64,000 nt of DNA, taken from positions 58,812 through 122,811 of the forward strand of contig NZ_JAQZBC010000008.1 in NCBI RefSeq assembly GCF_029239295.1. The letters run 5' to 3'. This stretch comes from Sphingomonas sp. (GTDB lineage Bacteria; Pseudomonadota; Alphaproteobacteria; Sphingomonadales; Sphingomonadaceae). Position numbers and translations under genes: made by a program. Positions 398 through 64,000 of this stretch are shown piece after piece (the stretch's first letter is position 1; each line of letters starts with the position of its first letter). Under the pieces are notes generated by a model. The model saw only the letters and a list, made by a program, of their open reading frames with translations, searched no databases and was not told the origin of the DNA.

Positions 398-404
398 TCG
401 TCGC

Positions 405-791: not shown

Positions 792-840
792 CGCGTATCT
801 CAACGCGGCGCCACGCAAGGGTGGGGCTGCATCGACCATG

Positions 841-877
841 AAAAAGGCGCCCGGCGGATCGGCCGGACGCCTTTTTT
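841..877. terminator. Bidirectional intrinsic terminator
   Basis: AAAAAGGCGCCCGGC-loop-GCCGGACGCCTTTTTT between convergent genes. Confidence 0.75.
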
Positions 878-952
878 GTTGCGTGATCGCGATGCTAGCG
901 CACCATTCACAAGCCCGTTCGGGAGGAGCGCACCGCGCCCCTCCCCAAGCGA

Positions 953-2257: not shown

Positions 2258-2279
2258 GAAAAATCCCCTCCGAGAACAT

Positions 2280-2291
2280 GTAACCGTTTAC
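2280..2291. promoter_or_regulatory. Candidate LacI-family operator upstream of the sugar transporter
   Basis: GTAACCGTTTAC = GTAA-N-CG-N-TTAC palindrome with central CG, about 23 bp upstream of the MFS start. Confidence 0.45.
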
Positions 2292-2324
2292 CGCGAAAAT
2301 TCGGGACTACAATCCGGGCCTTCC

Positions 2325-2996: not shown

Positions 2997-3131
2997 ACCG
3001 GCACCGCGTTCTTCAGCCACCCCGTAGACGACGGTGGCAACGTCAGCCCGCCCGCCGCGTTGACCGATCATGAACTTGACGCCCCCCTTGCCGATCGATC
3101 GTTTCGGCCGCTGCTGCGTCGTCGCGCCGGA

Positions 3132-4169
3132 ATGAGATCGACGATGCAGATCGACCGCGAGGCAATCGCCCAATTCGCGCTGAAGACGACGGTGGCGATC
3201 GCGCTGATCGCCTTCGCTCTCCTGATCTGGAAGCTGCACGACGCCGTGCTGCTGCTGTTCGCCGCGGTCATTACCGCGGTTATCCTGCGCGCATCAGCGC
3301 AAGCGCTTCAGCGCATCCTTCCGGTTGGCGATGGGGTGGCGCTGAGCCTCGCCACCGCGCTGATCGCGGCGTTGGTGATCGGCGCGATCGGGCTGTTCGG
3401 CCAAGAGGTCTCGAGCCAGGTCAGCGAGTTGACGGCGATGTTGCCGGGCGCGTGGGATACGCTGGTCGATACCGTCGGAGCCGAGCGCGTCGAACATCTG
3501 GTGGAGCGCTTCATGCCGGAGGGAGCGACGATCGCCTCGATCGCACAGACGGTGATCGGCTTGGTCACCAGCGCCGCGACTGGGCTCGCGCTGGCGGTTC
3601 TGGGGGGTGTGTATCTGGCGCTGTCGCCTGACACTTACCGCCGCGGGGCGCTCCGGCTGCTGCCGGACAGTGCCAAGGAGCGCGTCGCGCGCGCATTCGA
3701 CCAGACAGGCGATTCACTGCGCGCGTGGCTGCTGGGCCAGATCTTCCTGATGCTGCTCGTCGGCGTCGTTACGGGCGTCGGCCTGTGGATCATCGGCGTG
3801 CCGTCCGCCTTTGCGCTGGGGCTGATCGCCGGGTTGCTGGAGTTCGTGCCGTTGATCGGCCCGATCGCAGCGGCGATCCCCGGTGTGCTGATCGCGCTGA
3901 CCATGGGGCTGGAAACCGCCGCGCTGACGGCTGGCTTCTACTTTGTCGTGCAGCAGTCGGAGGGGAATATCCTGGAGCCGCTGGTCATGCGTAAATCGGT
4001 CTCGATCCCGCCGGCCGTGACGCTGTTCGCCATCTTCCTGTTCGGCGGGCTGTTTGGGCCGATCGGCGTGCTGCTGGGCGGGCCGCTAACGGTTGCCGCA
4101 TTCGTTCTGGTGCAGGTGCTGTGGCTGAATGATGATCTTCGTGCCGAGAAGAGGCAAAGTGCCACATAG
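3132..4169 (+). CDS. AI-2E (PerM) family transporter
   Basis: Multi-TM; LEFVPLIGP and VQQSEGNILEPLVM motifs; start 3132 or 3144. Confidence 0.88.
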   Translation: MRSTMQIDREAIAQFALKTTVAIALIAFALLIWKLHDAVLLLFAAVITAVILRASAQALQRILPVGDGVALSLATALIAALVIGAIGLFGQEVSSQVSELTAMLPGAWDTLVDTVGAERVEHLVERFMPEGATIASIAQTVIGLVTSAATGLALAVLGGVYLALSPDTYRRGALRLLPDSAKERVARAFDQTGDSLRAWLLGQIFLMLLVGVVTGVGLWIIGVPSAFALGLIAGLLEFVPLIGPIAAAIPGVLIALTMGLETAALTAGFYFVVQQSEGNILEPLVMRKSVSIPPAVTLFAIFLFGGLFGPIGVLLGGPLTVAAFVLVQVLWLNDDLRAEKRQSAT

Positions 4170-4170
4170 C

Positions 4171-4199
4171 AAAACGGCCGCATCCAGGGGATGCGGCCG
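4171..4199 (-). terminator. Intrinsic terminator of the F0 ATP synthase operon
   Basis: CGGCCGCATCC/GGATGCGGCCG 11-bp stem followed by T4 on the minus strand. Confidence 0.7.
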
Positions 4200-4225
4200 C
4201 TTGCCTGTCCAATGCGGGAGATCGC

Positions 4226-4876
4226 TCAGTTCGGGCGACCGATCCCGGCAATCGTGCGGTTGATCAACGTGCGATCAGCGTCAGGGCCGTGCCGGTCGGC
4301 AATCAGCGTGGCTGCTGCCTCCGCCGCGGCCGTTGCGGCGCGCGCGCGCACCTCATTGATCGCTGAACGCTCCGCGGCGGCGATCTTGTCCTGCGCCATC
4401 TTCGCGCGACGACCGACCAGCTCGTCCGCATCGACACGCGCCTGAGCGACGATCGCCTCCGCCTCGTGACTGGCCTGCGCGGCCATGTCAGCGGCGGACT
4501 TCTCCGCATCGGCGATCTTGCGGGCATATTCGTCGCGCAGCGCCTCAGCCTCAGCGCGGAGCGTCTTGGCCTCCTCAAGCTGCTGACGGATGCCAGCGAT
4601 CTGGCGATCAAGCCCGCCCATCAGCATGGCCGGCACCTTCTTCACCAGCATGATGATGATGAGCACCAGCATCGCCAGCGACACGATCACCGTGCCATTG
4701 GCGAAGCCGAACAGCGACGGATCGACGTGATGGTCGGGGCCGCCCTCGGCAATCGAGGTGCTGAGCGCCTCGGTACCCTCGGCGGTCATGCCTTCAGCCT
4801 CTGCCGCATGGGCGAGGTTTTCGGCGACCTGGGCAGATCCGCCGGTGGCGGCGGTCAGGATGATGAACTCAGCCAT
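4226..4876 (-). CDS. atpF: F0F1 ATP synthase subunit b
   Basis: Single TM followed by an Ala/Glu-rich coiled coil; position in the F0 operon. Confidence 0.9.
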   Translation of the reverse strand: MAEFIILTAATGGSAQVAENLAHAAEAEGMTAEGTEALSTSIAEGGPDHHVDPSLFGFANGTVIVSLAMLVLIIIMLVKKVPAMLMGGLDRQIAGIRQQLEEAKTLRAEAEALRDEYARKIADAEKSAADMAAQASHEAEAIVAQARVDADELVGRRAKMAQDKIAAAERSAINEVRARAATAAAEAAATLIADRHGPDADRTLINRTIAGIGRPN

Positions 4877-5363
4877 TCGCCATCGACGCCTTCACAGCGC
4901 CCCTCGCTTCGTCGGTCGACACCTGAATGCCGGACACGCGCGCCACGATGTCCTGCGCTGCCTCGGCGGCGATTGTCTCGATCTCGCCCAGAGCGCGGTC
5001 AGTGGCCGCCTTGATATCTGCCTCAGCTGCGGCAATCTGCTGCGCCTGATCGGCAGCAGCGATCGACAGCCGTTCCTCGGTCGCCTTGGCAGCAGCCTGG
5101 CGCGCCTCGGCGACGAGCGCCTGCGCCTTTTCGCGATTGGCCTGGTCGCGAATGCGCCAGTCGGCCTCCACCTTATCGGCAGCGTCACGCGCGGCCGAAG
5201 CGGCAGCGAGATCAGCGGCGATCGAGCGGTCACGCGAATCGATCGTCTTCTGCACCTTGGGCAGCATACCGCGGCCCACGACGAAAAAGACGATGCCAAA
5301 GGTAATCACCAGCCAGAAGAGCTGGGACGCCCATGTCGCGGCAAGTTGGGAAATCTGAGGCAT
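4869..5363 (-). CDS. atpF2: F0F1 ATP synthase subunit b'
   Basis: MPQISQ...SQLFWLVITFG motif typical of alphaproteobacterial b'. Confidence 0.9.
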   Translation of the reverse strand: MPQISQLAATWASQLFWLVITFGIVFFVVGRGMLPKVQKTIDSRDRSIAADLAAASAARDAADKVEADWRIRDQANREKAQALVAEARQAAAKATEERLSIAAADQAQQIAAAEADIKAATDRALGEIETIAAEAAQDIVARVSGIQVSTDEARGAVKASMANG

Positions 5364-5382
5364 CGAAAATCCTGCCTGAACA

Positions 5383-5403
5383 GGGCCGGCTAAACGCCGG
5401 CCC
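5383..5403. other. Intercistronic stem-loop downstream of atpE
   Basis: GGGCCGGC-TAAAC-GCCGGCCC perfect 8-bp stem. Confidence 0.6.
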
Positions 5404-5417
5404 CGTCAAGGATCATG

Positions 5418-5645
5418 TTAGGCGACGAACACCAGGATCATCGCCACGACGAACGACAGCAGACCGAGAAGTTCCGCACCGGCGAAGCCGATGAACAGAC
5501 GGCCCTGCTGTGCGTCAGCCGCACCCGGGTTGCGCAGCGCGCCCTCGAGGAACTTGCCGAACACGTTGCCCACGCCGAGCGAGGCGAGACCAGCACCAAC
5601 GGCCGCGAGACCGGCGCCGAGCAGCTTTGCGGCTTCTGCGTCCAT
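5418..5645 (-). CDS. atpE: F0F1 ATP synthase subunit c
   Basis: GAGLAAVGAG, ALRNPGAA and FAGAELLG (proton-binding Glu). Confidence 0.97.
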   Translation of the reverse strand: MDAEAAKLLGAGLAAVGAGLASLGVGNVFGKFLEGALRNPGAADAQQGRLFIGFAGAELLGLLSFVVAMILVFVA

Positions 5646-5695
5646 TTTAGTAACTCCCTATCAAGATCAAAAGGTTGGAAAAAACGGGTGAAAAC

Positions 5696-6484
5696 TTAGT
5701 GCAGGTTGACCGCATCGTTGAGATACAGCGAGGTCAACAGCGCAAAAACATAAGCCTGGATGCCGGCGACGAGCAGTTCGAGCGCCGAGATGCCGACCAT
5801 CAGGCCGAAGCTGGGGATGCCGACCAACAGGCCGACGCCGAGCCCGGCGTTACCGGCGTTGACGACGAACCCGGCCAGCACCTTCAGAAGGATGTGCCCG
5901 GCGGTCATCGCGACGAACAGTCGCAGGCCGAGGCTGAAGGGACGCACCATGAATGAGACGAACTCGATCAGCGGGATCACCGGCAGCAACCACCACGGCG
6001 TACCGTGCGGCACGAACAGGCTGAAGAAGTGAAGTCCGTGACGATAGAAACCAACCACCAGCACGATCGCGAACGACAGGATCGCGAGGATCCCGGTGAT
6101 CGTGAAGTGGCTGGTGAAGGTGAAGGGGTGAACGCCGATCACGCCGAGCGGCAGCAGGCCGAGGACGTTGGCGAACAGGATGAACATGAACAGCGAGAAG
6201 ACGTAGGGAACGTAGCGCTTCCCTTCGGGCCCGATGTTCTGTGCCAGCATGTTGTCGATGAAGCGCACCGCGCCCTCGACCATCATCTGGCCGCGCGTCG
6301 GCACAACCTTGCCCTTCGTACCGAGCGACATGAAGCCGATCAGTACGACCGTTGCCACGGCCATCCACATGGCCGAGTTCGTAAAGGCAATATTGTATCC
6401 GGCAATCTGCCAGTTCTGGGTGCCGAACAACGGCTCCACCAGAAACTGGTGCATCGGATCGATCTTGCCGCCGCCTTCCGCCAC
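5696..6484 (-). CDS. atpB: F0F1 ATP synthase subunit a
   Basis: RPFSLGLRLFVAMTAGH and QAYVFALLTSLYL motifs. Confidence 0.97.
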   Translation of the reverse strand: MAEGGGKIDPMHQFLVEPLFGTQNWQIAGYNIAFTNSAMWMAVATVVLIGFMSLGTKGKVVPTRGQMMVEGAVRFIDNMLAQNIGPEGKRYVPYVFSLFMFILFANVLGLLPLGVIGVHPFTFTSHFTITGILAILSFAIVLVVGFYRHGLHFFSLFVPHGTPWWLLPVIPLIEFVSFMVRPFSLGLRLFVAMTAGHILLKVLAGFVVNAGNAGLGVGLLVGIPSFGLMVGISALELLVAGIQAYVFALLTSLYLNDAVNLH

Positions 6485-6516
6485 GCCTGTATTTCCCTAA
6501 CGAAAGCGCCCGATCG

Positions 6517-6834
6517 TCACTTCGGGCGCTTGGTCGAAATCCGAATGATGTTTCTGAACGCAGCGATCGTCCCGAGGGCGAGCATCACGAGCAGACCCCA
6601 GGGCTGCGTGCCCGCAAATCGGTCGATCACCCAACCGATTAGCGCGCCGCCGACCATCCCCCCGGTCAATTCGGCGAGCACGCGGTTGCCGAGGCGATAG
6701 CCGCCGTCGGATTCCACCTTGCCCGCCTTTGTCCGGCTCGCCTCGTCCGCCTGTGCCGCCTTCAACCGCTCGTCGAGCGAGGTGAGACGTGCATCGGTGC
6801 CGAGGGAGTCTGGTCCGGGCTCGTTTTCGACCAT
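6517..6834 (-). CDS. atpI: ATP synthase protein I (AtpZ/AtpI family)
   Basis: ELTGGMVGGALIGWVIDRFAGTQPWGL motif; first gene of the F0 operon; ATG 6834. Confidence 0.85.
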   Translation of the reverse strand: MVENEPGPDSLGTDARLTSLDERLKAAQADEASRTKAGKVESDGGYRLGNRVLAELTGGMVGGALIGWVIDRFAGTQPWGLLVMLALGTIAAFRNIIRISTKRPK

Positions 6835-6903
6835 TCGCGCGCTCCCCAATATTCGTTGGGCAGGCGCCAAGAAGCCAAGTGGCGAGCCCGCCAAGGCGCC
6901 GTC

Positions 6904-6932
6904 CGGTTAGCCGGGGGGTCGGGGGGTGTCAA
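6904..6932 (-). promoter_or_regulatory. Sigma70-type promoter of the atp F0 operon
   Basis: TTGACA-N17-TAACCG on the minus strand upstream of atpI. Confidence 0.6.
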
Positions 6933-7003
6933 CCGTTGCACACCCCCTCGCCCGCCGGCGTCAGCACCTTATCACCCCGTTTGGCGGTGCTTTTCGGCGC
7001 GAC

Positions 7004-7384
7004 TCAGATGCAGCGCGGATCGCGGGTCGGCGCCCCGGCGCCACGAGTCTCCCACGTGCCGTCCGGCGTGCGGTACTTCTCGCCCGACTGGGTCTGCTGG
7101 ATCAGGTTGCACCCGCTGGTGAACGCCAATTGCTCCACCGTCGCGCCCGATGCCTGCGCCTTCTGGGTATAGGCAGCCTTGCGCTGGATGTTGATCGCAT
7201 TGACCAGCGCGCGCAGCTCCGCGCTGCCGGCACCGACCACGCCGAGATAGCCGTCGGGCTGCTCGCCAACCTGCCCCGCCGCGCGCGCTGCCGCATAAGC
7301 GGGATCACGCTGCGCAAAGGCAACGGTCGATACGCCGGTGAGCGCCAGCGCCCCCGCAACCATCCACATTACCTTCTTCGTCAT
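7004..7384 (-). CDS. ydbL: YdbL (DUF1318) family protein
   Basis: Signal peptide; GQVGEQPDGYLG and INIQRKAAY motifs; downstream of ynbE. Confidence 0.8.
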   Translation of the reverse strand: MTKKVMWMVAGALALTGVSTVAFAQRDPAYAAARAAGQVGEQPDGYLGVVGAGSAELRALVNAINIQRKAAYTQKAQASGATVEQLAFTSGCNLIQQTQSGEKYRTPDGTWETRGAGAPTRDPRCI

Positions 7385-7385
7385 C

Positions 7386-7607
7386 TCAAAAGATCCCCGG
7401 GTTCTGCTTGATCAGCGATTTGGCTTCGCTGTCGAGGCGGTACACCACCTCCTGCGTCACACTGATGTTCAGGTTGATGACGATCGGCTTGTCCGGCGCA
7501 GAGACGTTTACGCACGCTCCGGTTGCCAGCACCAATCCGGTCAAGACCTTCCCTTTCAGCACGGCAGAGATCGTGCGCCCTCCACCAATGTTCAACGTTT
7601 CGTTCAT
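7386..7607 (-). CDS. ynbE: YnbE family lipoprotein
   Basis: Lipobox LATGAC; APDKPIVINLNI motif. Confidence 0.85.
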   Translation of the reverse strand: MNETLNIGGGRTISAVLKGKVLTGLVLATGACVNVSAPDKPIVINLNISVTQEVVYRLDSEAKSLIKQNPGIF

Positions 7608-10600
7608 GGCATCATCTCGCTTGCGGAGGGCTGAATGGCTGGAGGCTGAGTGTTGGACGGCGGGGCGGCGGGTAACGTGACCGCCGGCGGCTGAACGCGG
7701 CGGTTCTGTTCTTCGATGAGGGCGGGCAGATTACGGTCGATCAGCCGTTTGGGATCGTAGAAGCTGGCAACCGAATCGATCAAGCCGCGGAATGGCGCGG
7801 TGATGCGGATGTTGAACACGAACGGCAGCTTCTGCAGGCGGCGAACGAGGAAGTTCGACTTTGCGCCCTCCCCCTGGCTGATCCCGGCGAACTTGACCTC
7901 GGTCACCATCTCCCCGGCGAGAGGGCCGTTCATCACCAGCTCCAGGTTGCGGTAGCGCAGCGAACGGAGCGCCTGGAACGCGATGTTGCCCCAGGTGCCG
8001 AGATCCTCTTCGGTCAGTTCGCCCAGATAGGCGATGCTGCCGCCGCCCTCGCGCATTACCAGCCGGCCGTTTTCGATCCGGCCGCCGCTCTGGTCGAAGA
8101 TCATCGGCAGCACGCCATCGGCGACGCCGGTGGCATCGAGATTCTTGAAATCGAACTTCTGCAGGAAGTGCCGCGCCTCCATCCGCTCGATCAGGAACGT
8201 CATGCGGCGCTCCTGCGGTGAGGAGAAATCAAGCAGCGTGGGCTGCAGGGTGAGGATGCCCGACGCGAACGGCCAGACCGCGCCGTTCACCTTTACGCGC
8301 AGATCGCGCAGCAGCTGATAATCGACGGTGCCATCCGTGACGGCGACCCCGGGGTTGATCTCCGCCACGGTGGCTTTCTGATTCGGCGCCGATTCCAGGG
8401 CGAGAAGATCGGTAAAGCGAAGATCGCCCTTGATTCCCGAGACCGGACCGAAGGCGGCGGCAAGATCGAGCTTGTCGGTGGAGAACAGCCCCGTCGATGT
8501 CACCCCATCGGGTGACCAGCTGATGTCGCCGGTGCCGCGCACGCTGCCCCGGACATCCGCGATGACGCCAAAGGTCAGTGGGGTCAGCTCCTCCGGCTGG
8601 AAACCGTCGCCAAAGGTGATCCCGGTAACGCCCAGCCGCGCCGTACCGCGTCCGCTGGACAACAGATGGCGGATCGCCACATCCGCGACCTTCACGTTCT
8701 TCGCTGGCTCGAACAACGTGCCATCGGCAGTGATGACGTTGTTCGCGAGCCGGAGCGTGACGGCGCGCGCGGCGAGCGGGCGGAAACGCGCGCTGTCAGC
8801 CGTGTCGCTGACCGACAAGTCGCCGTCGAGCGTCAGCACCGAGTCACGGAACCGCCAGCGACCCGCCGCATCCGCCAGCCTGAGCGGCACGGCGCCGATC
8901 CGTCCCGACCCGCCGGCGAAGGTGCCGAGGATATCGCCCGACGCAACCCGCCCGACCAGCGTCCCGAAATCCAGCTTCGTTTGCGCATCGGCCCTTCCGA
9001 TCCATGTCTCGACGCCGTCGAGCGCGAACGAGGCGCCCGCATGGCGCCACTCGGCGCGGCGGGCGCGTGCCTGAAGCGGCGATCCCCCCAGCGTGCCGGT
9101 CAGCCGCGGCTCCGAGACGGCGATGCCCCCGCCGACACCATCGCGCCCCATGCGGAACATGGCGCCGTCGAGCGGACATAGCGAAACGCGCATATTGCGC
9201 AGCGTAAGGCCCGACAGCGTCAGCCGAGTGAACGCTGCGTCCGTGCAGGAGCGGTTTAGAGCGATCGCGCCGCGCTGATCGAGCGCGGCGGACAGCGGGA
9301 TGCGCAATTCCTCGACCGCCCCGCCGCTGAGCGGGCCAGACAAGGTTGCGATGGTCTGCAGGGTTGTCCGGCCATCGGGTGCAGCGCTGAATCGCGCCGG
9401 TGTCAGTTCAAGGCGTGCGCCGCCCGCCGCATAGGGGGCAATGGTTGCGCCGCCCGTGATCGGGCCGCCTGCATGTCGTTGCGCGACCTGCACCGTTCCC
9501 TCGGGCAGGCCGCCGCCGCCGACGCGCAGCGTACCGTTGGCGCGAAGGCCGGCCGGGTCACCGATCACCACCTCCCCGCCCTCTCCGAACGCAAAGGTGG
9601 CCCCGGTTGCGGCTCGGATTGTCAGTTCGCGCACGCTGGCGAGTGGACGACCGACGGCAGTGCCCACTGCCGCCTCCCCGGCCAGTGAGAAGTCCGACCC
9701 GGCCCGCGCCAGCGCGTTCCCCGCGGCCGTCGCGAGCGGGGCGAGTGGTGTGCCGGCCGCAGCATTGCCGCCGGCGGCGAGTTGGCCCCGCAACGACGGA
9801 GCCAGCGCTACCCCTTGCCCGTCAAAGCGTCCGGCAAGGATGGCGCGCCCGGCAGCCAGGCGCCAGGTCCCAGCAAAGCCGGCCAAGCGGCTGCTGATGC
9901 CGGCTACGCTTACGCGCTCGCCGCGGAACTGGGCGCGCCCCTGGGTGCGCGCGGCGTCGCCCGCGAAGTTGATCTGGCCGCCGAGCGTTGCCACCTTGGC
10001 ACCGCTCGCCGCCACCGCCTGCGTCTGAAGCGACGCGGCACCATCCCAGTGCGTGAGTGCGGCGTTCAGGCCAACGTCCAGGCGCGCGGCGGGCGCGCTG
10101 ACCTGAACACCGCCACAGGACACCGCCACGGCGCGCAGCGGCCCGGACAGTTTCGGCGCGGCATCCCGCACCTCAACCGCCATGAAAGCAGTCGGTCGTT
10201 GGACGCGGCAGTCGGCAAGCTTCATCGACGGCGCGACCGCCGCCAGCGTGCCGCGAAAGTTTTCGTTCAGCCGACCCCGCCCTGACAAACGCACCCCGAT
10301 GACACCCAGCGGCGTTTCGAGCCGCATCCTGGCATCGGCAACCTCAAGGCCGAGCGCGGGCAAGGCAAATGGCTGACCCGAAGGTGCCGGCATCAGCCGG
10401 TCGATCGCACCAAGCGACAGGCGCCCGTCGACCAACCTGCCGCGAAGACGCATCCGTCCCGCGCGGACCGAATCGAGTTGCGGACGGCCGCCGCTGACCG
10501 ACAGACGAGTCTCGATCCAGTCCGCGACCAGATCGGGGTTCGCGGGATCACCGATCACCACATTGGTCAGACGCTGGCGGCGAAGCCCCAGATTGTCGAT

Positions 10601-55822: not shown

Positions 55823-58800
55823 TCAGTAATCGCGCGAGATGCGCACGTTCGCACTTTGCCGACCCAGCGTGGAAATACTGGAAAGCAGGGATAGCCAGCG
55901 GGTGACCTGATATTCGACGCGGGTGGCGGAATAGCCCTGACCGTCGGTGACGATTTCCGCATAGAGCCGGCGCGTGACGTACTTGCCGGCAGCGATCGAG
56001 GTGCTTTGCCCCGTCTGCGGATCGGCGGGGAGGATGCGCAGGCGATCGAGCCCGGCCGCGCGGCGCACCGCGTTGATCGGGTTGAGCCCGCCATCGCCGT
56101 CGCGCAGCGCGGCGACCGCGGCGGCGAGTTGAAGCGCCTCCGGGGCGGACAGGTTGGTAATCGAGGTGCCGAACAGCAGGCGCGAGAGCAGTTCATCCTG
56201 CGGGAGAGCGGGCGTGCTGCTGAAAGTGATTTCGGGTTTCAGCGCGACGCCAGTGACGCGAATGGAAGCGTTGAGCCCCGTCGTGTTGGCATCCGCCTCG
56301 ATGTCGAGCGCAGGGTTGGCGGGCACCTCACCGGCGAAGCGGATCACGCCGCGGGCAAGCTCAAACTCCCGCCCGGCGAATTCATAATCGCCGCGCACCA
56401 GATCGGCCCGGCCGGTGATCGCCGGATTGTCGGGCGCGCCGCCGATCGCGAGATCAGCCGACCATTCGCTGGTGAGGCCCAGCCCGGTGACGAACAGCTG
56501 ATCGGCGGCGCGCGCCTTGATATCGAGCCGCCACGGCGCGGGCGGTGCGCTGGCGTCCGCGCCGCCGCCGGTCTCGTTGATCTCGCGGATCTTGAGGCGG
56601 GGAACGGCACTGGCGGCGGTCGCCTGACCGAGGCGATAGCGGCTGCGATCCAGCTTCACCGCGCCGGAAATGGTGCCGCCGCGGCCGGTCGACTGGAAGC
56701 GCAGCGGCCCGGTAACGGTAGCGCCGATATCGTCGCGGTTGATCATCACCGCGCGGTCGGCATTCAGCGTCAGATCAAGGCCGATGCCGCCGCGTCCGGC
56801 AAAGTCGAACCGGCCAGTGCCCGTCACCTTGCCCTCACGCCCAGCGTTGGCGGTGAATTGGTCGATCGACAGCAACGAGCCGGCGAAGCGGCCACCCGCC
56901 TGCACATCGGTCAAGACGGTACCGGTCGTCGCGCTTTCGATGCGCGCGCCCTTCGCCTGGACGGAACCACGGATCGCCGGATCGGCGAGGGTGCCGGTGA
57001 CGTCGGCGGCGATCGCGACCGGGCCGGACAGATCGAACAGCTCCACGCGCGTCAGCCGCCACAAGGTGTCGGCCGGCCCTTCGTAGCGTAATTGCCCGAA
57101 TACTCCGGCGTTGGCGAAGCGCGTCGCGATATCCCCCTGCCCGAGCCGCAACAGCGCCTGGGCGCGGCCGATCGTCCGCCCGCCGCTGCCGACCACCGCG
57201 CGCACGCCGGCGCGATCCGCGGTCAGGACACCGGCCACTGCCATGTCGATCGGATTGGAGGACACCAACAGCCCCGACCGCGTGAGGCCACGCACCGTCA
57301 TGTCAATGCGGCCGGTCGGCGCGCTGCCGATGGTGCTGGCGTAGCTGATCTTGCCCGTGGCGCTGCCGCCGAGCCCAAGGCCCGGGGACACGATGTCGAG
57401 CACGGCGAGCGGCATTTGCGACAGGGTAGCGTCGACCATGTTGCTGTCGTCGGTCACTCGCCCGCCGATCGTCGCCGTACCGCCGGCGAACTTGATCGTG
57501 GCCGGCGCCAGCCGCCACCCGTCGCCATCGCGTGTGACCACCGCGGGCGTATCGAGCCGTAGCGGTCGGCGATCCACCGTGCCCTGTGCGACGATCCGGT
57601 AATTGTCAGGCGCCACATCGATCATGCTTTGCAGATCGAACGAGCGACCGCGCGAGCCGGCGATCGACAGGCGGACCTGTCCCAGGCCGTCGCGCAGCGT
57701 CGCATTCGCGGCAAAACGTGCGAGACTGAGCGGACCGCGGCGAAGGCCAGTGCCGTTGAACGTCCCTTCCAGCGTGGTGCCGGCGGGATCGAGCATTACC
57801 GCCAGATCGACCCTGCCCTGACGCAGCGTTGCGCCGCCGACAAGCTGCGCATTGCGTAGCGCCAGCCGCGTCTCGATCCGCTGAACGGCATTGACCGGGC
57901 GGAGCACGACCTCCCCATCGATCCCACCGCCGCTGACCGCCAGCCGGCCGTCGAAGCCATCATCAACGATGGTCACGGTGCCCGCGGCGCTAGTCCCGCT
58001 GACATCGAGCCGTGCGACCGCGATCTGCGCGTCGGTGCCGCGTGGCAGCAGGATGTCGCCGCTTCCCTCGAACGGGCCGAGCCGCGACTGTCCGGCCGCG
58101 GTGAAGGCGAAGCCCTGCGCACTAGGATCGAGATGAAGCCGCACATCCTGCAGCCCCAGCGCTGCATTGGGACGACGGAAGACGAGATCGAGCGTCGGGC
58201 GTTCGATCCGGCCGTCCAGCTTCAGCGTCACCGGTCCATATTGGGCCTGCTGGCCGGCACCGGTGAAAACAAAGGTGCCATTGCGGCGGCGATAACCGTT
58301 ACCGACCAAACGGATCGACGGACCGGTGAGCACCAGATTGCGGAAGTGGAGAATGCCGTCGGGTGTCCGCTCCAGCCCGGTCACGATGCGCGGCAATCCG
58401 CCCGCGAGGCTACGGAAAAAGCCATTGTCGAGCCGCACCATCTGCGCCACGCCGTTGCCGATCACGCGCGTTCCGCGGCCGCCGGGACCAGGCACCACGC
58501 GAAGCCGCGACGTGACATCAACCACCCCGAGCCCGGGGATCAGGTAGCGGCCAAGCGCGCCGTTCAGGCCGACCTGGTAGACGCCGGTGCGCAGATCGAG
58601 CAGCAAGCTGATCCGCCCGGTAAGCTTGTCCGACCGCAGCCGCAGATCATCGCCAGTCAGCGTCGTCGAGGTGAGGCGCAGCACGCCATCGACCGACAGG
58701 TTGCGCAGGATGCCCCCAGCGACATCGCCGACACCGGTAACGCGCGCTGCCGTGAAGCGGACCGGCACGGCGATAGGCGCGGCGGACAACCGCCCCTTGC

Positions 58801-59935
58801 CCGACAGCCGCGCCTGTTCGAAGCCGGTATTGTCGAAGGCGATGCGCGGCGCGGTAACCCGATAATCGAAGCGCGCAGTCGCAAAGCGGCCGTCGAGTAC
58901 CGCGCGCAACTCCACATTCCGGCCGCTCATGTTGGGGAAGAGAGCAGCGGGACGAAGCAGCCGTGCGCTCAGGCGCAGGTTGCGCCAGGCACTTTCGCCG
59001 AGATCAGCAATTCCGGTTGCCTCGATCGCCAGCGCGGCGGAGCGCGCGGACAGCTGGCCTTCAAGCCGGCGGTTGACGAAGGTGCCGGCCCCGTCGAGCC
59101 GCACGCGCGGCGCAGAGAGACGCTGCACCTTCCCCTTGGTGATGCTGCCGAGCGCCAGCGTGCCGCCGAGCGTGTAGTTGCCGGCGCGATTGCCGAGCGC
59201 GAGATCGACAACCCGCGCGTCACCCGCGCGGGCCACGGCGCGCCCCTGCCAATTCGCCCAGCGGCCGTCGCCGCCGATCTCCAGCGCGAGCGGGCGGCGA
59301 AGGCCGGAAAGCCGCGCGAGAACGCCATTGGCGCTGCCGCGGGCGCGCACGTCGAGGTCGAAGCGGTTGCGATCCGGCGCCGCATCTATGCGGACGCGAA
59401 GCTGGTCGCTCCCCTCCACCAGCGCGTCGAGGGAAACGAGCGCGTTGCCGTTGGTGATCGCGGCGCGGCCCGCGACACGGCCGTAGCGAAGCGCGCCGGT
59501 CACCTGCGGCGCGACCACGAGCCGGTCCAGCGACAATCGGCCGATCAGAATGTCGAAATCGGGCAGGATCGGCCCCTGCCGGCCGGTAGGCCGCAGACGC
59601 GGCAGCTTCGCCAACATACCCACTGGCACATCGAGCGAGCGGATCTCCAGCCGGTTGGAGAGCCAGGCAAACGGCCGCCAATCGAGGTTTGCGCGCGGGG
59701 CGGCGAATACCAGCCCCTCGGGATCATGAACCCGGACGTCCCGCAGCACCGCCGCGCCATAGAGCGACCCGTCGATCCGCCCGACGGTGATCCGCAGCCC
59801 ATTGGCAGGGCGCGCCGCGTTGATCCGCTGCGCCACCCAGCGATGACCGATGTCGGTATCAACGATCCACAGGCTGGCGAGGATGATGGTGGCGAGGAGC
59901 GCGATCCCGCCCAGCAGCCAGCGCCACAGCCGCAT
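55823..59935 (-). CDS. tamB: Translocation and assembly module TamB
   Basis: N-terminal anchor, 1370 aa beta-rich; C-terminal DUF490 features (LPQDELLSRLLFG, AAGKYVTRRLYAE). Confidence 0.88.
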   Translation of the reverse strand: MRLWRWLLGGIALLATIILASLWIVDTDIGHRWVAQRINAARPANGLRITVGRIDGSLYGAAVLRDVRVHDPEGLVFAAPRANLDWRPFAWLSNRLEIRSLDVPVGMLAKLPRLRPTGRQGPILPDFDILIGRLSLDRLVVAPQVTGALRYGRVAGRAAITNGNALVSLDALVEGSDQLRVRIDAAPDRNRFDLDVRARGSANGVLARLSGLRRPLALEIGGDGRWANWQGRAVARAGDARVVDLALGNRAGNYTLGGTLALGSITKGKVQRLSAPRVRLDGAGTFVNRRLEGQLSARSAALAIEATGIADLGESAWRNLRLSARLLRPAALFPNMSGRNVELRAVLDGRFATARFDYRVTAPRIAFDNTGFEQARLSGKGRLSAAPIAVPVRFTAARVTGVGDVAGGILRNLSVDGVLRLTSTTLTGDDLRLRSDKLTGRISLLLDLRTGVYQVGLNGALGRYLIPGLGVVDVTSRLRVVPGPGGRGTRVIGNGVAQMVRLDNGFFRSLAGGLPRIVTGLERTPDGILHFRNLVLTGPSIRLVGNGYRRRNGTFVFTGAGQQAQYGPVTLKLDGRIERPTLDLVFRRPNAALGLQDVRLHLDPSAQGFAFTAAGQSRLGPFEGSGDILLPRGTDAQIAVARLDVSGTSAAGTVTIVDDGFDGRLAVSGGGIDGEVVLRPVNAVQRIETRLALRNAQLVGGATLRQGRVDLAVMLDPAGTTLEGTFNGTGLRRGPLSLARFAANATLRDGLGQVRLSIAGSRGRSFDLQSMIDVAPDNYRIVAQGTVDRRPLRLDTPAVVTRDGDGWRLAPATIKFAGGTATIGGRVTDDSNMVDATLSQMPLAVLDIVSPGLGLGGSATGKISYASTIGSAPTGRIDMTVRGLTRSGLLVSSNPIDMAVAGVLTADRAGVRAVVGSGGRTIGRAQALLRLGQGDIATRFANAGVFGQLRYEGPADTLWRLTRVELFDLSGPVAIAADVTGTLADPAIRGSVQAKGARIESATTGTVLTDVQAGGRFAGSLLSIDQFTANAGREGKVTGTGRFDFAGRGGIGLDLTLNADRAVMINRDDIGATVTGPLRFQSTGRGGTISGAVKLDRSRYRLGQATAASAVPRLKIREINETGGGADASAPPAPWRLDIKARAADQLFVTGLGLTSEWSADLAIGGAPDNPAITGRADLVRGDYEFAGREFELARGVIRFAGEVPANPALDIEADANTTGLNASIRVTGVALKPEITFSSTPALPQDELLSRLLFGTSITNLSAPEALQLAAAVAALRDGDGGLNPINAVRRAAGLDRLRILPADPQTGQSTSIAAGKYVTRRLYAEIVTDGQGYSATRVEYQVTRWLSLLSSISTLGRQSANVRISRDY

Positions 59936-61884
59936 CAGAATGCCTGCCCGAGCGAGACGTAGACCGCGACGCGCGAATCGCCCGGCTGAGGATTGAGCGG
60001 CGTGCCGACGTCGACGCGGATCGGGCCGAAGTTGCTATAGTAACGAACACCGACGCCGGCGCCGTAGCGAAGGCCCGAGAAGTCGGGCAGCGACGAAGTG
60101 TAGATGTTACCGCCATCGAAGAACGGCACGATGCCGAAATCGCCGAACGCCTTGATCCGACCCTCGATCGCGAATTCGGCCAGGCTGCGCCCGCCGATCG
60201 GATCGTTGTTGGGATCCCGCGGGCCGATCAACTGATAGCCATAGCCGCGCACCGAGGCGCCGCCGCCGGCGTAGAAGCGCCGCGACGGGGCGATTGCATC
60301 GAGCGGGGCACCGGCGATCGTGCCAAGGCGTAGGCGCCCAGCCAGAACGACGCCGTCGCTGATCGATTTATAGGCGCTGGCATCGACCTGCGTGCGGGCA
60401 TAGCCGAACGCCGATCCCTGAAGCGACACCTCCGGGCTGAACCGCCCGCCGAGGCGGAAACCACGCGTAGGGTTCAGCAGATCGTCCGAGCCATCATAGG
60501 TGAGGCTGGTCGGCGCGGCGGCGATGAAGAAGGTGCGGCGGCGCGGCTCCCCCGTGGTTATAATCACGTCGCGTTCGTCAGACGCCACCAGTTCGGCGCC
60601 GAGCGACCACGTCCATGTCTTCTGAAAGAAGATGTTGGTTTGCCGCTCGAGGCTGCCCGACAGCGAGAAGGTATTGGCCTCATAGGCCTCGCGATTGGTG
60701 TGCGCGGCGCTGATCTGCGCGGTCAGCACGCGATCGCGCCCTTCGAAATTGTTGCGGCGGAAGGTAACCGCGCCCAGCTGCTCGCGCGTACCCAAGACGC
60801 TGCGCAGCGTCAGCGCGCCTTCGGGTGGGAACAGATTGCGGTGAGTCCAGCTCGCCTCGACACGCGCGCCCTCGCCGGTGCCATAGCCGATTTCGCCTGC
60901 GATGGTGCGCGGCGGGGCAGGTTCGAGGCGAACGTCGATATCGACCGTTTCCGGCGTTGTGCCGGGCACCGGCGTTACATCCGCCACCGACACCAGCCCG
61001 GTCTGCACCAGCGCGCGACGCAGATCGTCGAGCGCCGGGGCGTAATAAGGCTTGCCCGGTTCGAAGCGGGCGATTTCCTGCACATGCGCCGCGTCGAACA
61101 CGCGGTTGTTCGGATTGGCGCGGATCTGGCCGAAGACGCGCGCGGTGCCGGGATCGACGTTGATGTCGAGCGTCGCGGTGCGCGCTTCACGGTCGATCGT
61201 CACCTCGGGCTCACCGATTTTCGCGAAGGGGAAGCCCTGTTCCCCTGCCTCGACGCGCAGCTTCGCCTCGCCGGTGGTAATGCGATCGGCATCGACCGGA
61301 TCGTCGGGCTTCACGCCAAAGGCATCGCGCAGCGCGGCGGCCTTTTCCCCCGCCGCGGCCACGCCGGCGATGGTCACGTCCTTCAGCCGATAGATCGTCC
61401 CCGGCGTGGCGGTAAGCACGACCAGCGGGCGGCCGTCGACGGTATCGATCCGGGGTTCGACCTCAGCATCATAATAGCCCTGCGCGCGCAGCAGCGTGAC
61501 CAGCAGCGTCGAATCCTCCCGCGCGCGCCGATCGAGCTGCGCGGCGTTGGCAGGCTCCCCATCGTTCTGCTCGAGGACCGAGAGCGAGGCGAAACGGTCG
61601 CGCAGCAGCGGCGTGGCAAGATCGTCCAGCCCGTCGATCCGCCAGGCATATCGGGTCTCACCGATCTGCGCCGCCGTTGCCTGTTGCGCGGCGGGTGCCT
61701 CGGGCGGGAGTTCGGGCCAGGCGACGCCGATGTCGGGCATGTCCGCGAGCGGTGCGGCCGGATCGATCGCGGGGGCCGGCGCGGGCACAGGAACAGGGCT
61801 GGCGGATTGCTGCGCGCCAGCGGGCGCCGAGACGATCGACGCGACCAGACCTGCCCCAGCGATCAGCGCCCTACGCCCGTCCAT
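59935..61884 (-). CDS. tamA: TamA/Omp85-family outer-membrane protein
   Basis: POTRA-like repeats, RFYAGGGASVRGY, GPIRVDVG, terminal LGQAF; ATG 61884. Confidence 0.88.
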   Translation of the reverse strand: MDGRRALIAGAGLVASIVSAPAGAQQSASPVPVPAPAPAIDPAAPLADMPDIGVAWPELPPEAPAAQQATAAQIGETRYAWRIDGLDDLATPLLRDRFASLSVLEQNDGEPANAAQLDRRAREDSTLLVTLLRAQGYYDAEVEPRIDTVDGRPLVVLTATPGTIYRLKDVTIAGVAAAGEKAAALRDAFGVKPDDPVDADRITTGEAKLRVEAGEQGFPFAKIGEPEVTIDREARTATLDINVDPGTARVFGQIRANPNNRVFDAAHVQEIARFEPGKPYYAPALDDLRRALVQTGLVSVADVTPVPGTTPETVDIDVRLEPAPPRTIAGEIGYGTGEGARVEASWTHRNLFPPEGALTLRSVLGTREQLGAVTFRRNNFEGRDRVLTAQISAAHTNREAYEANTFSLSGSLERQTNIFFQKTWTWSLGAELVASDERDVIITTGEPRRRTFFIAAAPTSLTYDGSDDLLNPTRGFRLGGRFSPEVSLQGSAFGYARTQVDASAYKSISDGVVLAGRLRLGTIAGAPLDAIAPSRRFYAGGGASVRGYGYQLIGPRDPNNDPIGGRSLAEFAIEGRIKAFGDFGIVPFFDGGNIYTSSLPDFSGLRYGAGVGVRYYSNFGPIRVDVGTPLNPQPGDSRVAVYVSLGQAF

Positions 61885-61933
61885 TGATGCAGCCGTAGGG
61901 CGTCCGCTCGCGGGCGGCAATGCGCCGTGTGGC

Positions 61934-62143
61934 TCAGTGCAGCGTGCCCAGCGGTTGATCGGTCGCAAGTACCCGCACCAGACGCTCGATCTGGCGCCAG
62001 CGGCAGAAGTGAATGACGTTGCCGACCGATCGGCTGCGATCGGCGCGCAGCGCGGCCTCATCCGCGGCAAACGCCCCGAACACGTGGAGCAGCGAGGAGG
62101 CGTCAGCGACCAGCTGGCGATCGGCGAGGTACAATGGTGGCAA
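61934..62143 (-). CDS. Small hypothetical protein (about 69 aa)
   Basis: Protein-like ORF (FGAFAADEAALRAD...GNVIHFCRWRQIERL) filling the gap upstream of tamA; TTG start. Confidence 0.6.
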   Translation of the reverse strand: MPPLYLADRQLVADASSLLHVFGAFAADEAALRADRSRSVGNVIHFCRWRQIERLVRVLATDQPLGTLH

Positions 62144-62266
62144 GGGTGCGCTCTGTTGCAGATGTCGGAACGGGGCTACCGCCCGAGCTCCTCAGACCGC
62201 GTGAATGGCGAGGGTTAATGGTTTGCCGCTTGGCAGCGCGCGGTGCGGCGTGGCAAGGCGCGCGGC

Positions 62267-62440
62267 ATGGCCGATCCCCTCAAGCGCCCGGGCAATGCCG
62301 GCGGATTCCTGGTTGCCGTTTCGCTGCTGGCGGGCACCGTCATCGGGCTGATCGTCGGGCAACCGTCGATCGGCTTTCTCGTCGGGCTTGCCGTTGGCAG
62401 CGCCGCCGCAGTGGCGATGTGGTTGAAGGACCGTCGCTGA
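62267..62440 (+). CDS. Small two-TM membrane protein (57 aa)
   Basis: AGGFLVAVSLLAGTVIGLIVGQPSIGFLVGLAVG hydrophobic hairpin with a basic tail. Confidence 0.65.
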   Translation: MADPLKRPGNAGGFLVAVSLLAGTVIGLIVGQPSIGFLVGLAVGSAAAVAMWLKDRR

Positions 62441-62484
62441 CGCAAGCGGCTGCGGCCGGGGCCGACGTCTGACCGCCTAGCGAA

Positions 62485-63105
62485 TCAAGGCTCGCGCAGC
62501 AGCAGGCGGACGCGGCCGATCACGGTGGCTTCGCCCTTGGCGCACGTTAGCGGAGGGTAATCCGGATTGTCGCTGAGCAGCGTCAGTCCCGCGCCGTCGT
62601 ACCGGACGCGCTTTACCAGTAGCTCCTCCTCCCGGCGAACGACGAAGATGCCGTCACTGGCCGGCGCAAGATCGCTGCGATCAACCAGCAGGCGATCGCC
62701 CGGCAGGATCGTCGGCGTCATCGAATCGCCGACCGCATCGATAATCGAGGCGGCGGGCGGCGAGATGCCCGCGTCACGCAGCAGCCGAGCGGCGAACGCC
62801 TCCTGCCGAATCGCCCGTTCCTCACCCGCTGCCTGCCCGCTGCCGGCCGAGGCGGCCACCGTCAGATAGGGCACCGACACCAGCGGCGGATCGGCAGCAG
62901 CGGTGCCGCCGAGCAGCGTTTCGTCGACGCCGAAGAATTGCGCGAGCACGCGCCGGTCGGCCTCCGCCAACCGCCGCGGGGTGCCGCGCCGGACGAATTG
63001 CTGAAGATAGGCAAGGTTACGACCGATCAGGCGTGACAGCTCCGACAGGCTGATCCCGCGTGCCGCCGCCAGCCGCTCCAGCGTCTCTCCAACCGTCTCA
63101 GACAT
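62485..63105 (-). CDS. CI/LexA-like repressor: HTH plus S24 peptidase
   Basis: N-terminal HTH (ISLSELSRLIGRNLAYLQQF), Ala-Gly cleavage site (ASAG), GDSM Ser and VKRV Lys dyad. Confidence 0.88.
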   Translation of the reverse strand: MSETVGETLERLAAARGISLSELSRLIGRNLAYLQQFVRRGTPRRLAEADRRVLAQFFGVDETLLGGTAAADPPLVSVPYLTVAASAGSGQAAGEERAIRQEAFAARLLRDAGISPPAASIIDAVGDSMTPTILPGDRLLVDRSDLAPASDGIFVVRREEELLVKRVRYDGAGLTLLSDNPDYPPLTCAKGEATVIGRVRLLLREP

Positions 63106-63117
63106 CCATCCATATTA

Positions 63118-63137
63118 GTCTAGGATTTTTCCTAGAC
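63118..63137. promoter_or_regulatory. Operator-like palindrome
   Basis: GTCTAGGA-TTTT-TCCTAGAC, perfect 8-bp inverted repeat 12 bp upstream of the repressor ATG. Confidence 0.7.
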
Positions 63138-63155
63138 AAGTTGGAAAAGTTGCGA

Positions 63156-63170
63156 GAACGGATAGGGAAC
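63156..63170. promoter_or_regulatory. Alphaproteobacterial LexA (SOS) box
   Basis: Perfect GAAC-N7-GAAC (GAACGGATAGGGAAC). Confidence 0.7.
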
Positions 63171-63191
63171 ACAGCGACTCGGGAGCTTGCC

Positions 63192-63410
63192 ATGTCCCTC
63201 CTCACCCAGATTGACTGCTACCTTCGCCGAACCGGCATCTCGCCCTCCACCTTCGGTCGCCAGGCGGTGAATGATCCGCGCCTGGTGCATGACCTGCGCC
63301 GCGGTCGAAGCCCCGGCCCGCGGATGCGCGCGCGCGTGGAAGCCGCGCTGCGCGCGCCGCCGCCGGGAGAAAAGCCCAACGGTGACACACGCCCGGGAAT
63401 GGCAAACTGA
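63192..63410 (+). CDS. Small Cro-like putative DNA-binding protein (72 aa)
   Basis: GGGAG RBS; ISPSTFGRQAVNDPRLVHDLRRGRSP is HTH-like; divergent from the S24 repressor. Confidence 0.65.
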   Translation: MSLLTQIDCYLRRTGISPSTFGRQAVNDPRLVHDLRRGRSPGPRMRARVEAALRAPPPGEKPNGDTRPGMAN

Positions 63411-63721
63411 TGCGCGGTCCCGCTCCTAGCGCGGTGATCGAGCGCGCCTTGCTGGCATCGGCGGCGCAGCGCCGCCTGGCAGTAGCGATCGAACCGCTCG
63501 GCTCCGCTGCCTGGTACAGCGCGACCTTTGCCGGCGAGCGGTATGCGATGGCGCTGACAACACTGGCGAGCGACGCGGCGCGCGACTGGCTGGCGTGTGT
63601 GCCGGACATGGACGTGACGCTGCCCGGCTGCATGCTCGCCGGCCTGTCGGTGACCGAGGCCAGCGAGCAGGACGGCCAGTGCCACGCGCAAATCGAGGCG
63701 ATTACCGTGGAGCGCGCCTGA
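63410..63721 (+). CDS. Hypothetical protein (103 aa), coupled to the upstream gene
   Basis: TGATG overlap at 63408-63412; protein-like composition (SATFAGERY). Confidence 0.65.
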   Translation: MRGPAPSAVIERALLASAAQRRLAVAIEPLGSAAWYSATFAGERYAMALTTLASDAARDWLACVPDMDVTLPGCMLAGLSVTEASEQDGQCHAQIEAITVERA

Positions 63722-63746
63722 GCAGCGCGCCTGAGCAGCGCGCCTG
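63711..63746. repeat. 13-bp tandem repeat (about 2.8 copies) spanning a stop codon
   Basis: AGCGCGCCTGAGC AGCGCGCCTGAGC AGCGCGCCTG. Confidence 0.85.
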
Positions 63747-63755
63747 CGCGGCGAA

Positions 63756-64000
63756 TCAGCCGCGTGCCATCCGGCGCAGCATGACCAGCGTATCGTCGAG
63801 GCTGCCCGAGGGCGGGGGTGACGGCGGAGCAGGATCGGTGGGCGGCGGCGTGTCCTTGCGTCGCTGCGCGCCGCGTTCCAGCCGATCGAGCAGGGCTGCG
63901 ATCGAATCGCCGGATTCCTGATTGCCGCCGTGATCGGTTTGGCCGTGCTCTGGCTCTGGCGTCGCGTCGACGGGGGCGGGCGTATCGATCGCGTCCGATG
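63756..64000 (-). CDS. Hypothetical protein, C-terminal part (truncated by window edge)
   Basis: Open frame 63998 to 63756: ...SIAALLDRLERGAQRRKDTPPP...SLDDTLVMLRRMARG*. Confidence 0.6.
   Translation of the reverse strand, partial: SDAIDTPAPVDATPEPEHGQTDHGGNQESGDSIAALLDRLERGAQRRKDTPPPTDPAPPSPPPSGSLDDTLVMLRRMARG

Follow-up and report, generated by a model that had tools for sequence, protein, structure and literature searches.

What maintains a phage-type repressor, together with its operator and a divergent partner gene, on a bacterial chromosome free of phage genes around it? The question is raised by a three-gene module near the end of a 64,000-nucleotide stretch of Sphingomonas sp. DNA (contig NZ_JAQZBC010000008.1, positions 58,812 to 122,811), referred to here as the window and numbered from its first base. 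The module consists of a CI-like repressor gene, a small divergent gene at the Cro position and, directly behind the latter, a gene for a 103-amino-acid (aa) protein; literature searches returned no description of it. The module is probably a fragment of the immunity and early region of a temperate phage or an integrative and conjugative element (ICE) that became fixed in the Sphingomonas chromosome and is kept as a switch triggered by DNA damage. Its main parts are listed below.

62485–63105, minus strand: CI-like repressor, 206 aa, with an N-terminal XRE-type helix-turn-helix (HTH) and a C-terminal S24 peptidase domain.
63118–63137, no strand: operator, the perfect palindrome GTCTAGGA-TTTT-TCCTAGAC, with its core AGGA-(A/T)4-TCCT at 63122–63133.
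63156–63170, plus strand: LexA-type box GAAC-N7-GAAC (GAACGGATAGGGAAC), 21 bp before the ATG of the small gene.
63192–63410, plus strand: small HTH-like gene, 72 aa, with a conserved core of about 57 aa.
63410–63721, plus strand: effector candidate, 103 aa, a soluble α-β-β-α-β-β domain whose gene is translationally coupled to the small gene.

The repressor and the small gene diverge across an 86-bp gap (63106–63191). Upstream of the small gene is GGGAG (63181–63185), and the stop codon of the small gene overlaps the ATG of the 103-aa gene by one base (TGATG). An initial annotation of this DNA had claimed an HTH-S24 repressor with an intact Ser/Lys dyad and Ala-Gly site, a divergent 72-aa gene coupled to a 103-aa gene, a palindrome in the gap and a perfect GAAC-N7-GAAC box of the alphaproteobacterial LexA type before the small gene, and all of these are confirmed at the positions given above.

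The repressor matches Peptidase_S24 (PF00717) with an E value of 2.9e-19 and 69.3 bits (cut-off 23.3) and, over its full length, the PHROG family phrog_4, ‘transcriptional repressor’ (E 7.7e-40); residues 6–64 give weak matches to HTH_31 and HTH_26 that are below cut-off (E 0.015 and 0.046). The features associated with cleavage, Ala87-Gly88, Ser128 (in GDSM) and Lys165 (in VKR), are each at least 90% conserved in 81 orthologues, and self-cleavage stimulated by activated RecA (RecA*) is predicted. The protein is not the LexA orthologue, as its match to TIGR00498 reaches 23.9 bits against a cut-off of 110.95 and is confined to the S24 part (residues 93–204), and the LexA winged-helix family PF01726 does not match it. 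Its best 120 homologues are all sphingomonad. Searched with the PADLOC defence models, the module proteins gave a sole match, that of the repressor HTH to CapH, which is weak (E 1.1e-4).

How widely is the module kept? A scan of one genome per species found a relative in 250 species, and the best 80 of the 250 loci were compared; all are from Sphingomonas or Stakelama except two contigs of metagenome-assembled genomes with implausible labels. The latter (L075, labelled Prosthecochloris vibrioformis, and L080, labelled Bordetella parapertussis) carry a typical Sphingomonas module with small genes at 58–62% identity, and are most likely mis-binned. The three-gene set is complete in 80 of the 80 loci, with the S24 repressor divergently upstream and the 103-aa homologue directly downstream of the small gene, and a stop/start overlap of 4 nt or 1 nt (ATGA, GTGA or TGATG) is kept in nearly all of them. 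About 43 loci adjoin tamA and about 40 have the same downstream gene. Divergence of the module proteins tracks that of TamA (Spearman rho 0.50–0.60, n = 37), which fits vertical inheritance with some rearrangement.

The ratio of non-synonymous to synonymous substitution rates (dN/dS), taken from 111 closely related pairs because the all-pairs estimate is saturated and unreliable, is 0.16–0.20 for the repressor, 0.12–0.13 for the 72-aa gene and 0.27–0.34 for the 103-aa gene. Such low values in close pairs indicate that all three genes are maintained as proteins, under purifying selection. The domestication proposed in the initial annotation is thus borne out by genus-wide conservation, by selection and by divergence that follows tamA, and retention across the genus Sphingomonas suggests that the module is probably a working DNA-damage switch. 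Comparison between loci shows the anatomy of the module, its conservation, the selection acting on it and the origin of its parts.

Which sites in the gap are under the same constraint? The 81 aligned intergenic regions reveal a sharp footprint within otherwise variable sequence, composed of TA at the repressor −10, AGGA-(A/T)4-TCCT-n-GACAAG and GAACA-N6-GAAC; nearly invariant within the variable spacer are AGGAnnTTTCCTnGACAAG and GAACA-N6-GAAC. The palindrome has a single match in the window, even when three mismatches are allowed (0.05 expected). Its 8-bp arms are lineage-specific, and the AGGA-N4-TCCT core is present in 77 of the 80 orthologous promoters, with only two copies elsewhere in the 913 kb of DNA flanking the orthologous loci that served as the background for site counts; no second copy of the operator was found in the window or these flanks. 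The base flanking the operator arms co-varies symmetrically (T:A in 36, G:C in 17 and C:G in 2 of 78), the pattern expected from a dimer on a two-fold site.

Three loci depart from the operator core: L070 has ATAGGAACGTTTTTCCCTAT, L064 has GTACGATTTTCCATAG and L052 has a 5-nt spacer, making them candidates for co-evolution of repressor and operator specificity. In run X10, assembled contigs break and branch at the operator (63120–63151), and several low-depth contigs share the 25-mer at 63121–63145. This branching fits co-occurring strains that share an invariant operator, and could also reflect further copies elsewhere.

As published for alphaproteobacteria, LexA recognizes the direct repeat GAAC-N7-GAAC, or GTTC-N7-GTTC (PMC3323433, PMC9578287). 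Its count in the window alone is within chance (3 matches against 1.56 expected, with 23 of 100 shuffles reaching 3), so the significance of the box comes from comparison across species: it is present in 78 of the 80 orthologous promoters at the same place and in the same orientation, the remaining two having one mismatch, against a background of five copies in 913 kb, both strands counted. The tetramers are invariant and the spacer is variable (consensus R-GAAC-A-N6-GAAC-A), and the box is 17–22 bp downstream of the operator core. In one clade (L010, L011, L014, L015, L017, L020, L029 and L031–L033) the arrangement is GAAC-N6-GAAC-N7-GAAC, about 45–60 bp upstream of the small gene. The third GAAC of this clade, which replaces the usual GTTGGAAA between operator and box, could be a second, overlapping LexA-type half-site.

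Two further elements of the gap are candidate promoter parts.

63112–63117, minus strand: candidate −10 hexamer TAATAT of the repressor promoter, read from the sequence and ending 7 nt before the ATG.
63133–63139, no strand: invariant block (T)AGACAA, which reads as a −35-like TAGACA on the plus strand (small gene) and as a −35-like TTGTCT on the minus strand (repressor).

The putative repressor promoter would comprise, on the minus strand, TTGTCT (63139–63134), a 16-nt spacer holding the palindrome, and TAATAT (63117–63112). The first two bases of TAATAT and the motif GACAAG are each at least 90% conserved in the 81 aligned intergenic regions. As the repressor ATG follows 7 nt after the candidate −10, its mRNA would have little or no leader. 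On the plus strand, TAGACA overlaps the right arm of the palindrome. No known RNA family matched in 61800–64000.

How would such an arrangement respond to damage? From the sites and residues above we infer who binds where, cleavage, timing and feedback. Bound to (T)AGGA-N4-TCCT(A) would be a dimer of the CI-like repressor, in the spacer of its own, probably leaderless, promoter; as the same operator would also overlie the −35-like TAGACA of the divergent promoter, binding is likely to repress both. LexA would occupy the direct repeat, where the −10 and the start of the small-gene promoter should be, and would form an independent block of the operon. After DNA damage, RecA* would make LexA cleave itself, and the CI-like repressor too, though probably more slowly. 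Phage repressors of the CI type typically cleave more slowly than LexA, as established for lambda. Transcription of the operon only once both repressors are gone would constitute an AND gate for heavy or persistent damage; the slower cleavage of the CI type would keep the operon silent unless the damage is strong or lasting. The Cro-like product would probably return to the same operator, thus shaping or limiting the response, and the 103-aa product would be the output of the switch. The double gating by DNA damage suggested in the initial annotation is the most economical reading of the conserved S24 cleavage residues, the operator and the LexA-type box.

Could the module instead be a functionless, decaying prophage remnant, or the margin of an intact prophage or ICE? 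The nearest non-orthologous relatives of all three genes do reside in phages and ICEs, but the 10 kb on each side are devoid of mobile-element genes, and the intact reading frames in 80 of 80 genomes, dN/dS well below 1 and conserved regulatory sites leave this explanation with hardly any credence. Six public contigs encode an identical repressor and extend past the window end. Located beyond the 103-aa gene are a convergent gene for a 334-aa protein (no Pfam match) and genes for a GT4 glycosyltransferase, a Wzy_C protein, aconitase and valyl-tRNA synthetase; on the other side are genes for a small protein of 57–65 aa, TamA and TamB, and polysaccharide export genes. No integrase, terminase, capsid or transfer gene was found within 10 kb on either side, including past the window end, so that the orphan state of this CI/Cro-type switch, claimed from the window, holds for 10 kb in each direction. 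For the source genome, the contigs running past the window end exclude the edge of an intact prophage, a possibility that had been raised together with that claim.

The surroundings, covered by window positions 55823–62070 and by positions 1–9350 of locus L001, have on one side tamA and tamB with, further on, genes for Wza-like export, a BBP2_2 outer-membrane barrel and a tyrosine-kinase-like protein, and on the other the block with the glycosyltransferase, Wzy_C and 334-aa protein genes. These envelope and polysaccharide neighbours have no obvious link to DNA damage. Convergent with the repressor is a gene for a small hydrophobic protein of about 57–65 aa (62243–62440, plus strand), which adjoins the repressor in most of the 80 loci at 36–69% identity and may or may not be part of the module.

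What is the small divergent protein, and where did it come from? The 72-aa protein matches no Pfam, NCBIfam or PHROG family. Its AlphaFold2 (AF2) model (predicted local distance difference test, pLDDT, of 79) has four helices, and the top Foldseek matches are 434 repressor, 434 Cro, P22 c2, HipB, C proteins (C.AhdI) and SinR, all of them lambda-repressor-like DNA-binding domains (template-modelling score, TM, of about 0.6; probability up to 0.98; weak E values of 0.3–3). The sequence follows the XRE pattern G-h-S...F-G-R...h..h-R-R-G-R-x-P. Weak as the E values are, the matches agree with one another, and a fold like that of Cro and 434 repressor is tentatively predicted for this protein. Its distant homologues, confirmed by profile, are encoded by the first gene opposite an S24 repressor in the following mobile elements.

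L087–L090: loci of ICEs or integrative and mobilizable elements, with TraG-type coupling proteins, integrases or a VirB-type transfer system.
L092: a circular Bradyrhizobium element of 46.6 kb with phage-like early genes, a phage-plasmid.
L093: the sequenced phage MinM1.

The intergenic regions of these relatives contain, at the position of the operator, sites resembling TAGGA-N4-(A/T)CCTA and no GAAC-N7-GAAC, which indicates that the operator type belongs to the repressor family and that the LexA box was added in the chromosomal Sphingomonas module. None of the mobile elements with the repressor/Cro pair encodes a member of the 103-aa family.

The shared operator type bears on another explanation, in which the repressor is kept for superinfection immunity, silencing incoming phages and ICEs with the same operator, and the other two genes are passengers. 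The repressor is clearly of phage type (phrog_4), and the related mobile elements do carry the TAGGA-N4-(A/T)CCTA operator between homologous repressor and Cro-like genes. However, this explanation does not account for purifying selection on the two downstream genes, for their conserved coupling, or for the fact that a LexA-type box missing from the mobile relatives was gained and kept, and we consider it very unlikely.

What would the switch release? A word-indexed search with the 103-aa protein found, besides its own sequence, only a 75%-identical homologue and a 57-aa fragment; an exhaustive search found 166 representative clusters, nearly all of about 100 aa and standalone. Representatives of 162–168 aa that resembled fusions of the 72-aa and 103-aa proteins are mis-called starts. 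An AF2 model built with 62 aligned representatives is a compact domain (pLDDT 96.6, predicted TM score 0.86). Its best Foldseek match in the Protein Data Bank (PDB) is the monocin cap (9j1j_A; E 1.9e-5, TMq 0.70), followed by Listeria Antigen B (4acv_B; E 8.2e-5) and a virion chain of the RcGTA particle (6tba_4A; E 1.2e-3). The tail terminators of Mu, T5, T4 and lambda also match, as does a DUF3168-type ‘tail completion protein’ in the BFVD viral library (E 7.6e-5). The 103-aa protein is thus confidently predicted to fold as a tail-terminator-like α/β sandwich; searches of Pfam, PHROG and PDB profiles gave no match to tail families.

Viral homologues of the 103-aa protein were found in only three IMG/VR contigs (profile E 1e-16 to 1e-35), and in all three the gene is in the early region, upstream of the terminase gene. 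On the first contig it follows and overlaps a Mu Gam-like gene, with terminase, portal, protease and capsid genes downstream; on the second the order is reversed, and it overlaps a Mu Gam-like gene that comes after it (PF07352, E 3.9e-15); on the third it comes after a DNA methyltransferase gene. The stop/start overlaps of the Gam-like and 103-aa genes are ATGA in L095 (1001–1824) and TGATG in L097 (6902–7721), in opposite gene orders. This association suggests a functional pairing of the 103-aa family with Mu Gam-like proteins in phages. The genomic position, in the early region and not in a tail module, argues against a role in the tail. The 103-aa protein is a phage early protein, with a DNA-end-binding protein as its neighbour in two of three cases. 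One metagenome scan added six more chromosomal-type modules and no phage copies.

Because the 103-aa protein belongs to a small family of phage early proteins whose genes adjoin those of Gam-type DNA-end-binding proteins, our guess is that it acts during damage, on recombination, the cell cycle or the processing of DNA ends, and we favour this over a structural role. A fuller proposal, which we hold to be less likely than not, is that Sphingomonas recruited a phage early protein, of an undescribed Gam-associated family with a tail-terminator-like fold, as a late-SOS effector that would be released when LexA and the slower-cleaving CI-like repressor have both been destroyed. Once free, it would act on a host target, for example in cell division, recombination or the processing of double-strand-break ends (AddAB or Ku), or might instead poison phage assembly, be the phages induced or infecting. 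The initial annotation had also suggested an SOS effector such as a division inhibitor, which the 103-aa protein may be.

The 13-bp unit GCGCGCCTGAGCA is repeated about 2.7 times at 63712–63746, across the stop codon of the 103-aa gene (TGA, 63719–63721). A related strain in run X10 has one GCGCGCCTGAGCA unit fewer, and the C terminus of the 103-aa protein is the same either way.

The gene order could also suit an SOS-controlled pair of the toxin–antitoxin kind, in which the small XRE-type HTH protein would serve as antitoxin and autoregulator, growth would be arrested by the 103-aa protein as the toxin, and LexA and the CI-like repressor would add further control. The order (antitoxin first), the overlap (1–4 nt) and the sizes (57–72 and about 103 aa) are what type II pairs typically show; the antitoxins HipB and HigA are among the fold matches of the small protein, and one public source labels a homologue ‘Antitoxin Xre/M...’. 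The two genes are, however, separable: ICEs and phages carry the small gene at the Cro position with no 103-aa gene, and phages carry the 103-aa gene, beside Gam or methyltransferase genes, with no small gene. As the top 50 PDB matches of the 103-aa model include no known toxin fold and the PADLOC models match neither protein, we regard such a pair as doubtful.

Does the switch instead command a phage-like machine elsewhere in the genome? The initial annotation had named a distant gene transfer agent (GTA) or prophage as a possible target and had drawn a link to RogA. More broadly, the module could be the master switch of a remote GTA, tailocin or cryptic prophage, in the style of RogA-GafYZ, PrtR-PrtN or AlpR-AlpA, with the Cro-like protein, alone or with the 103-aa protein, activating distant structural genes and the 103-aa protein perhaps serving as a tail-terminator-type part or assembly regulator. 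RogA has an HTH and an S24-like part that is without catalytic residues (PMC9632790), and RogA-GafYZ controls the GTA of Caulobacter, GafY being DnaA-domain-IV-like and GafZ sigma-like (PMC9632790, PMC11150451). The logic is alike, in that an HTH and S24-like repressor acts, or in the module would act, on a coupled two-gene operon of small proteins through an A/T-spaced inverted repeat of the GGAA/TTCC type, and GGAA-N4-TTCC resembles AGGA-N4-TCCT (PMC9632790). Furthermore, gafY and gafZ likewise overlap at stop and start, as read from primer sequences, and the tail terminators and DUF3168-type proteins matched by the 103-aa model include the RcGTA virion chain.

The resemblance weakens on closer comparison. 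RogA is unlinked to gafYZ and its catalytic residues are missing, whereas the Sphingomonas repressor adjoins its operon and has conserved, intact residues. The two operators are in different registers, GGAA-N4-TTCC against AGGA-N4-TCCT, the latter reading GGAA-N2-TTCC in many orthologues. An identification of the 72-aa and 103-aa proteins with GafY and GafZ was rejected, as neither matches DnaA_C, sigma or any other family and the primer-derived termini (MLVQALE... and MTGGLQI...) are unlike; there is no sequence relation to the DnaA-domain-IV-like and sigma-like families described for GafY and GafZ, and no match to a GafY/GafZ-type Pfam, NCBIfam or PHROG family. The 103-aa family has no profile-level similarity to tail terminators and is located in the early regions of real phages, not in their tail modules. 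A remote target also fits poorly with the absence of a second operator in the 64 kb of the window and the 913 kb of orthologous flanks. The link to RogA and GafYZ is therefore reduced to a loose analogy, the distant GTA or prophage is not borne out as a target, and a master switch of this kind is in our view unlikely.

Several observations weigh against the reading that we prefer, a domesticated immunity-and-early fragment working as a damage switch. Tail terminators head the structural matches of the 103-aa protein, a poor fit to a role in DNA metabolism, and the Gam association comes from only three phage contigs, two of them with Gam. A GAAC direct repeat might in principle be bound by a protein other than LexA. 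A strict sigma-70 consensus scan found no promoter in the gap, so the promoter geometry given above is what we infer; the same scan found no consensus terminators. RNA sequencing runs gave flat, DNA-like contig depths and no usable coverage.

If the preferred reading is correct, a whole CI/Cro switch, and not a lone repressor, has been domesticated for the lifetime of a large genus, with a host LexA site grafted onto it. A gate of two repressors on one signal would be a simple way to distinguish brief from persistent DNA damage. Sphingomonads inhabit leaves, air and dust, where damage by ultraviolet light is routine. The same reading would give a context to two families that have had no annotation: the 72-aa Cro-like one as a marker of the switch region in a group of alphaproteobacterial phages and ICEs, and the 103-aa one as a confidently folded phage early protein whose target could reveal a new phage–host interaction in DNA repair or the cell cycle.

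How does the module compare with characterized switches? Like the CI/Cro switch of lambda, it has a divergent layout with an operator in between, a repressor with an XRE-type HTH, an S24 domain, Ala-Gly and Ser/Lys, and, at the Cro position, a gene for a protein with a predicted Cro/434-like fold. The lambda cI mRNA made from PRM is leaderless, and the probable leaderless repressor mRNA of the module resembles it. The module differs from lambda in having a single palindromic operator and not three tandem sites, only one gene after ‘cro’, no phage behind it, an added LexA-type box, and fixation in a whole genus. In CTXphi, the promoter PrstA is reportedly co-repressed by the phage repressor RstR and host LexA, a finding ascribed to Quinones, Kimsey and Waldor in 2005. 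Shared with the module are an element-specific repressor site and a LexA site on one promoter, and induction that needs DNA damage; CTXphi, however, is a live filamentous phage whose RstR is not a self-cleaving S24 protein, whereas the module is domesticated and both of its repressors are predicted to cleave themselves.

In the PrtR-PrtN and AlpR-AlpA systems of Pseudomonas aeruginosa, damage to DNA leads to cleavage of a CI-like S24 repressor encoded on the chromosome, which frees a divergent gene for a small regulator. The layout of an S24 repressor and a divergent small regulator gene is that of the module, but these systems adjoin the pyocin or lysis genes that they activate, and no such genes are near the Sphingomonas module. 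We know of no LexA box described in their promoters. In a phage-remnant locus of Listeria, two XRE regulators control a metzincin/TIMP-like pair (PMC8235301). This is likewise a domesticated, chromosomal CI/Cro-like pair of phage origin that controls small phage-derived cargo; the cargo is different, and neither S24 self-cleavage nor a LexA site is reported for it. In Acinetobacter, the self-cleaving S24 repressor UmuDAb is divergent from DdrR, a small genus-specific protein of the DNA-damage response (PMC7273328, PMC11332147). The module similarly pairs an S24 repressor of the self-cleaving type with a divergent small protein, but UmuDAb derives from UmuD and replaces LexA in a genus without it, whereas the Sphingomonas repressor is phage CI-like and LexA is presumably present. 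The underlying principles are thus already known from CI/Cro switches, from LexA co-control in CTXphi and from the domesticated repressors PrtR, AlpR, RogA and UmuDAb; new here are a complete mini-switch that has an added LexA site and is fixed throughout a genus, and two protein families without annotation.

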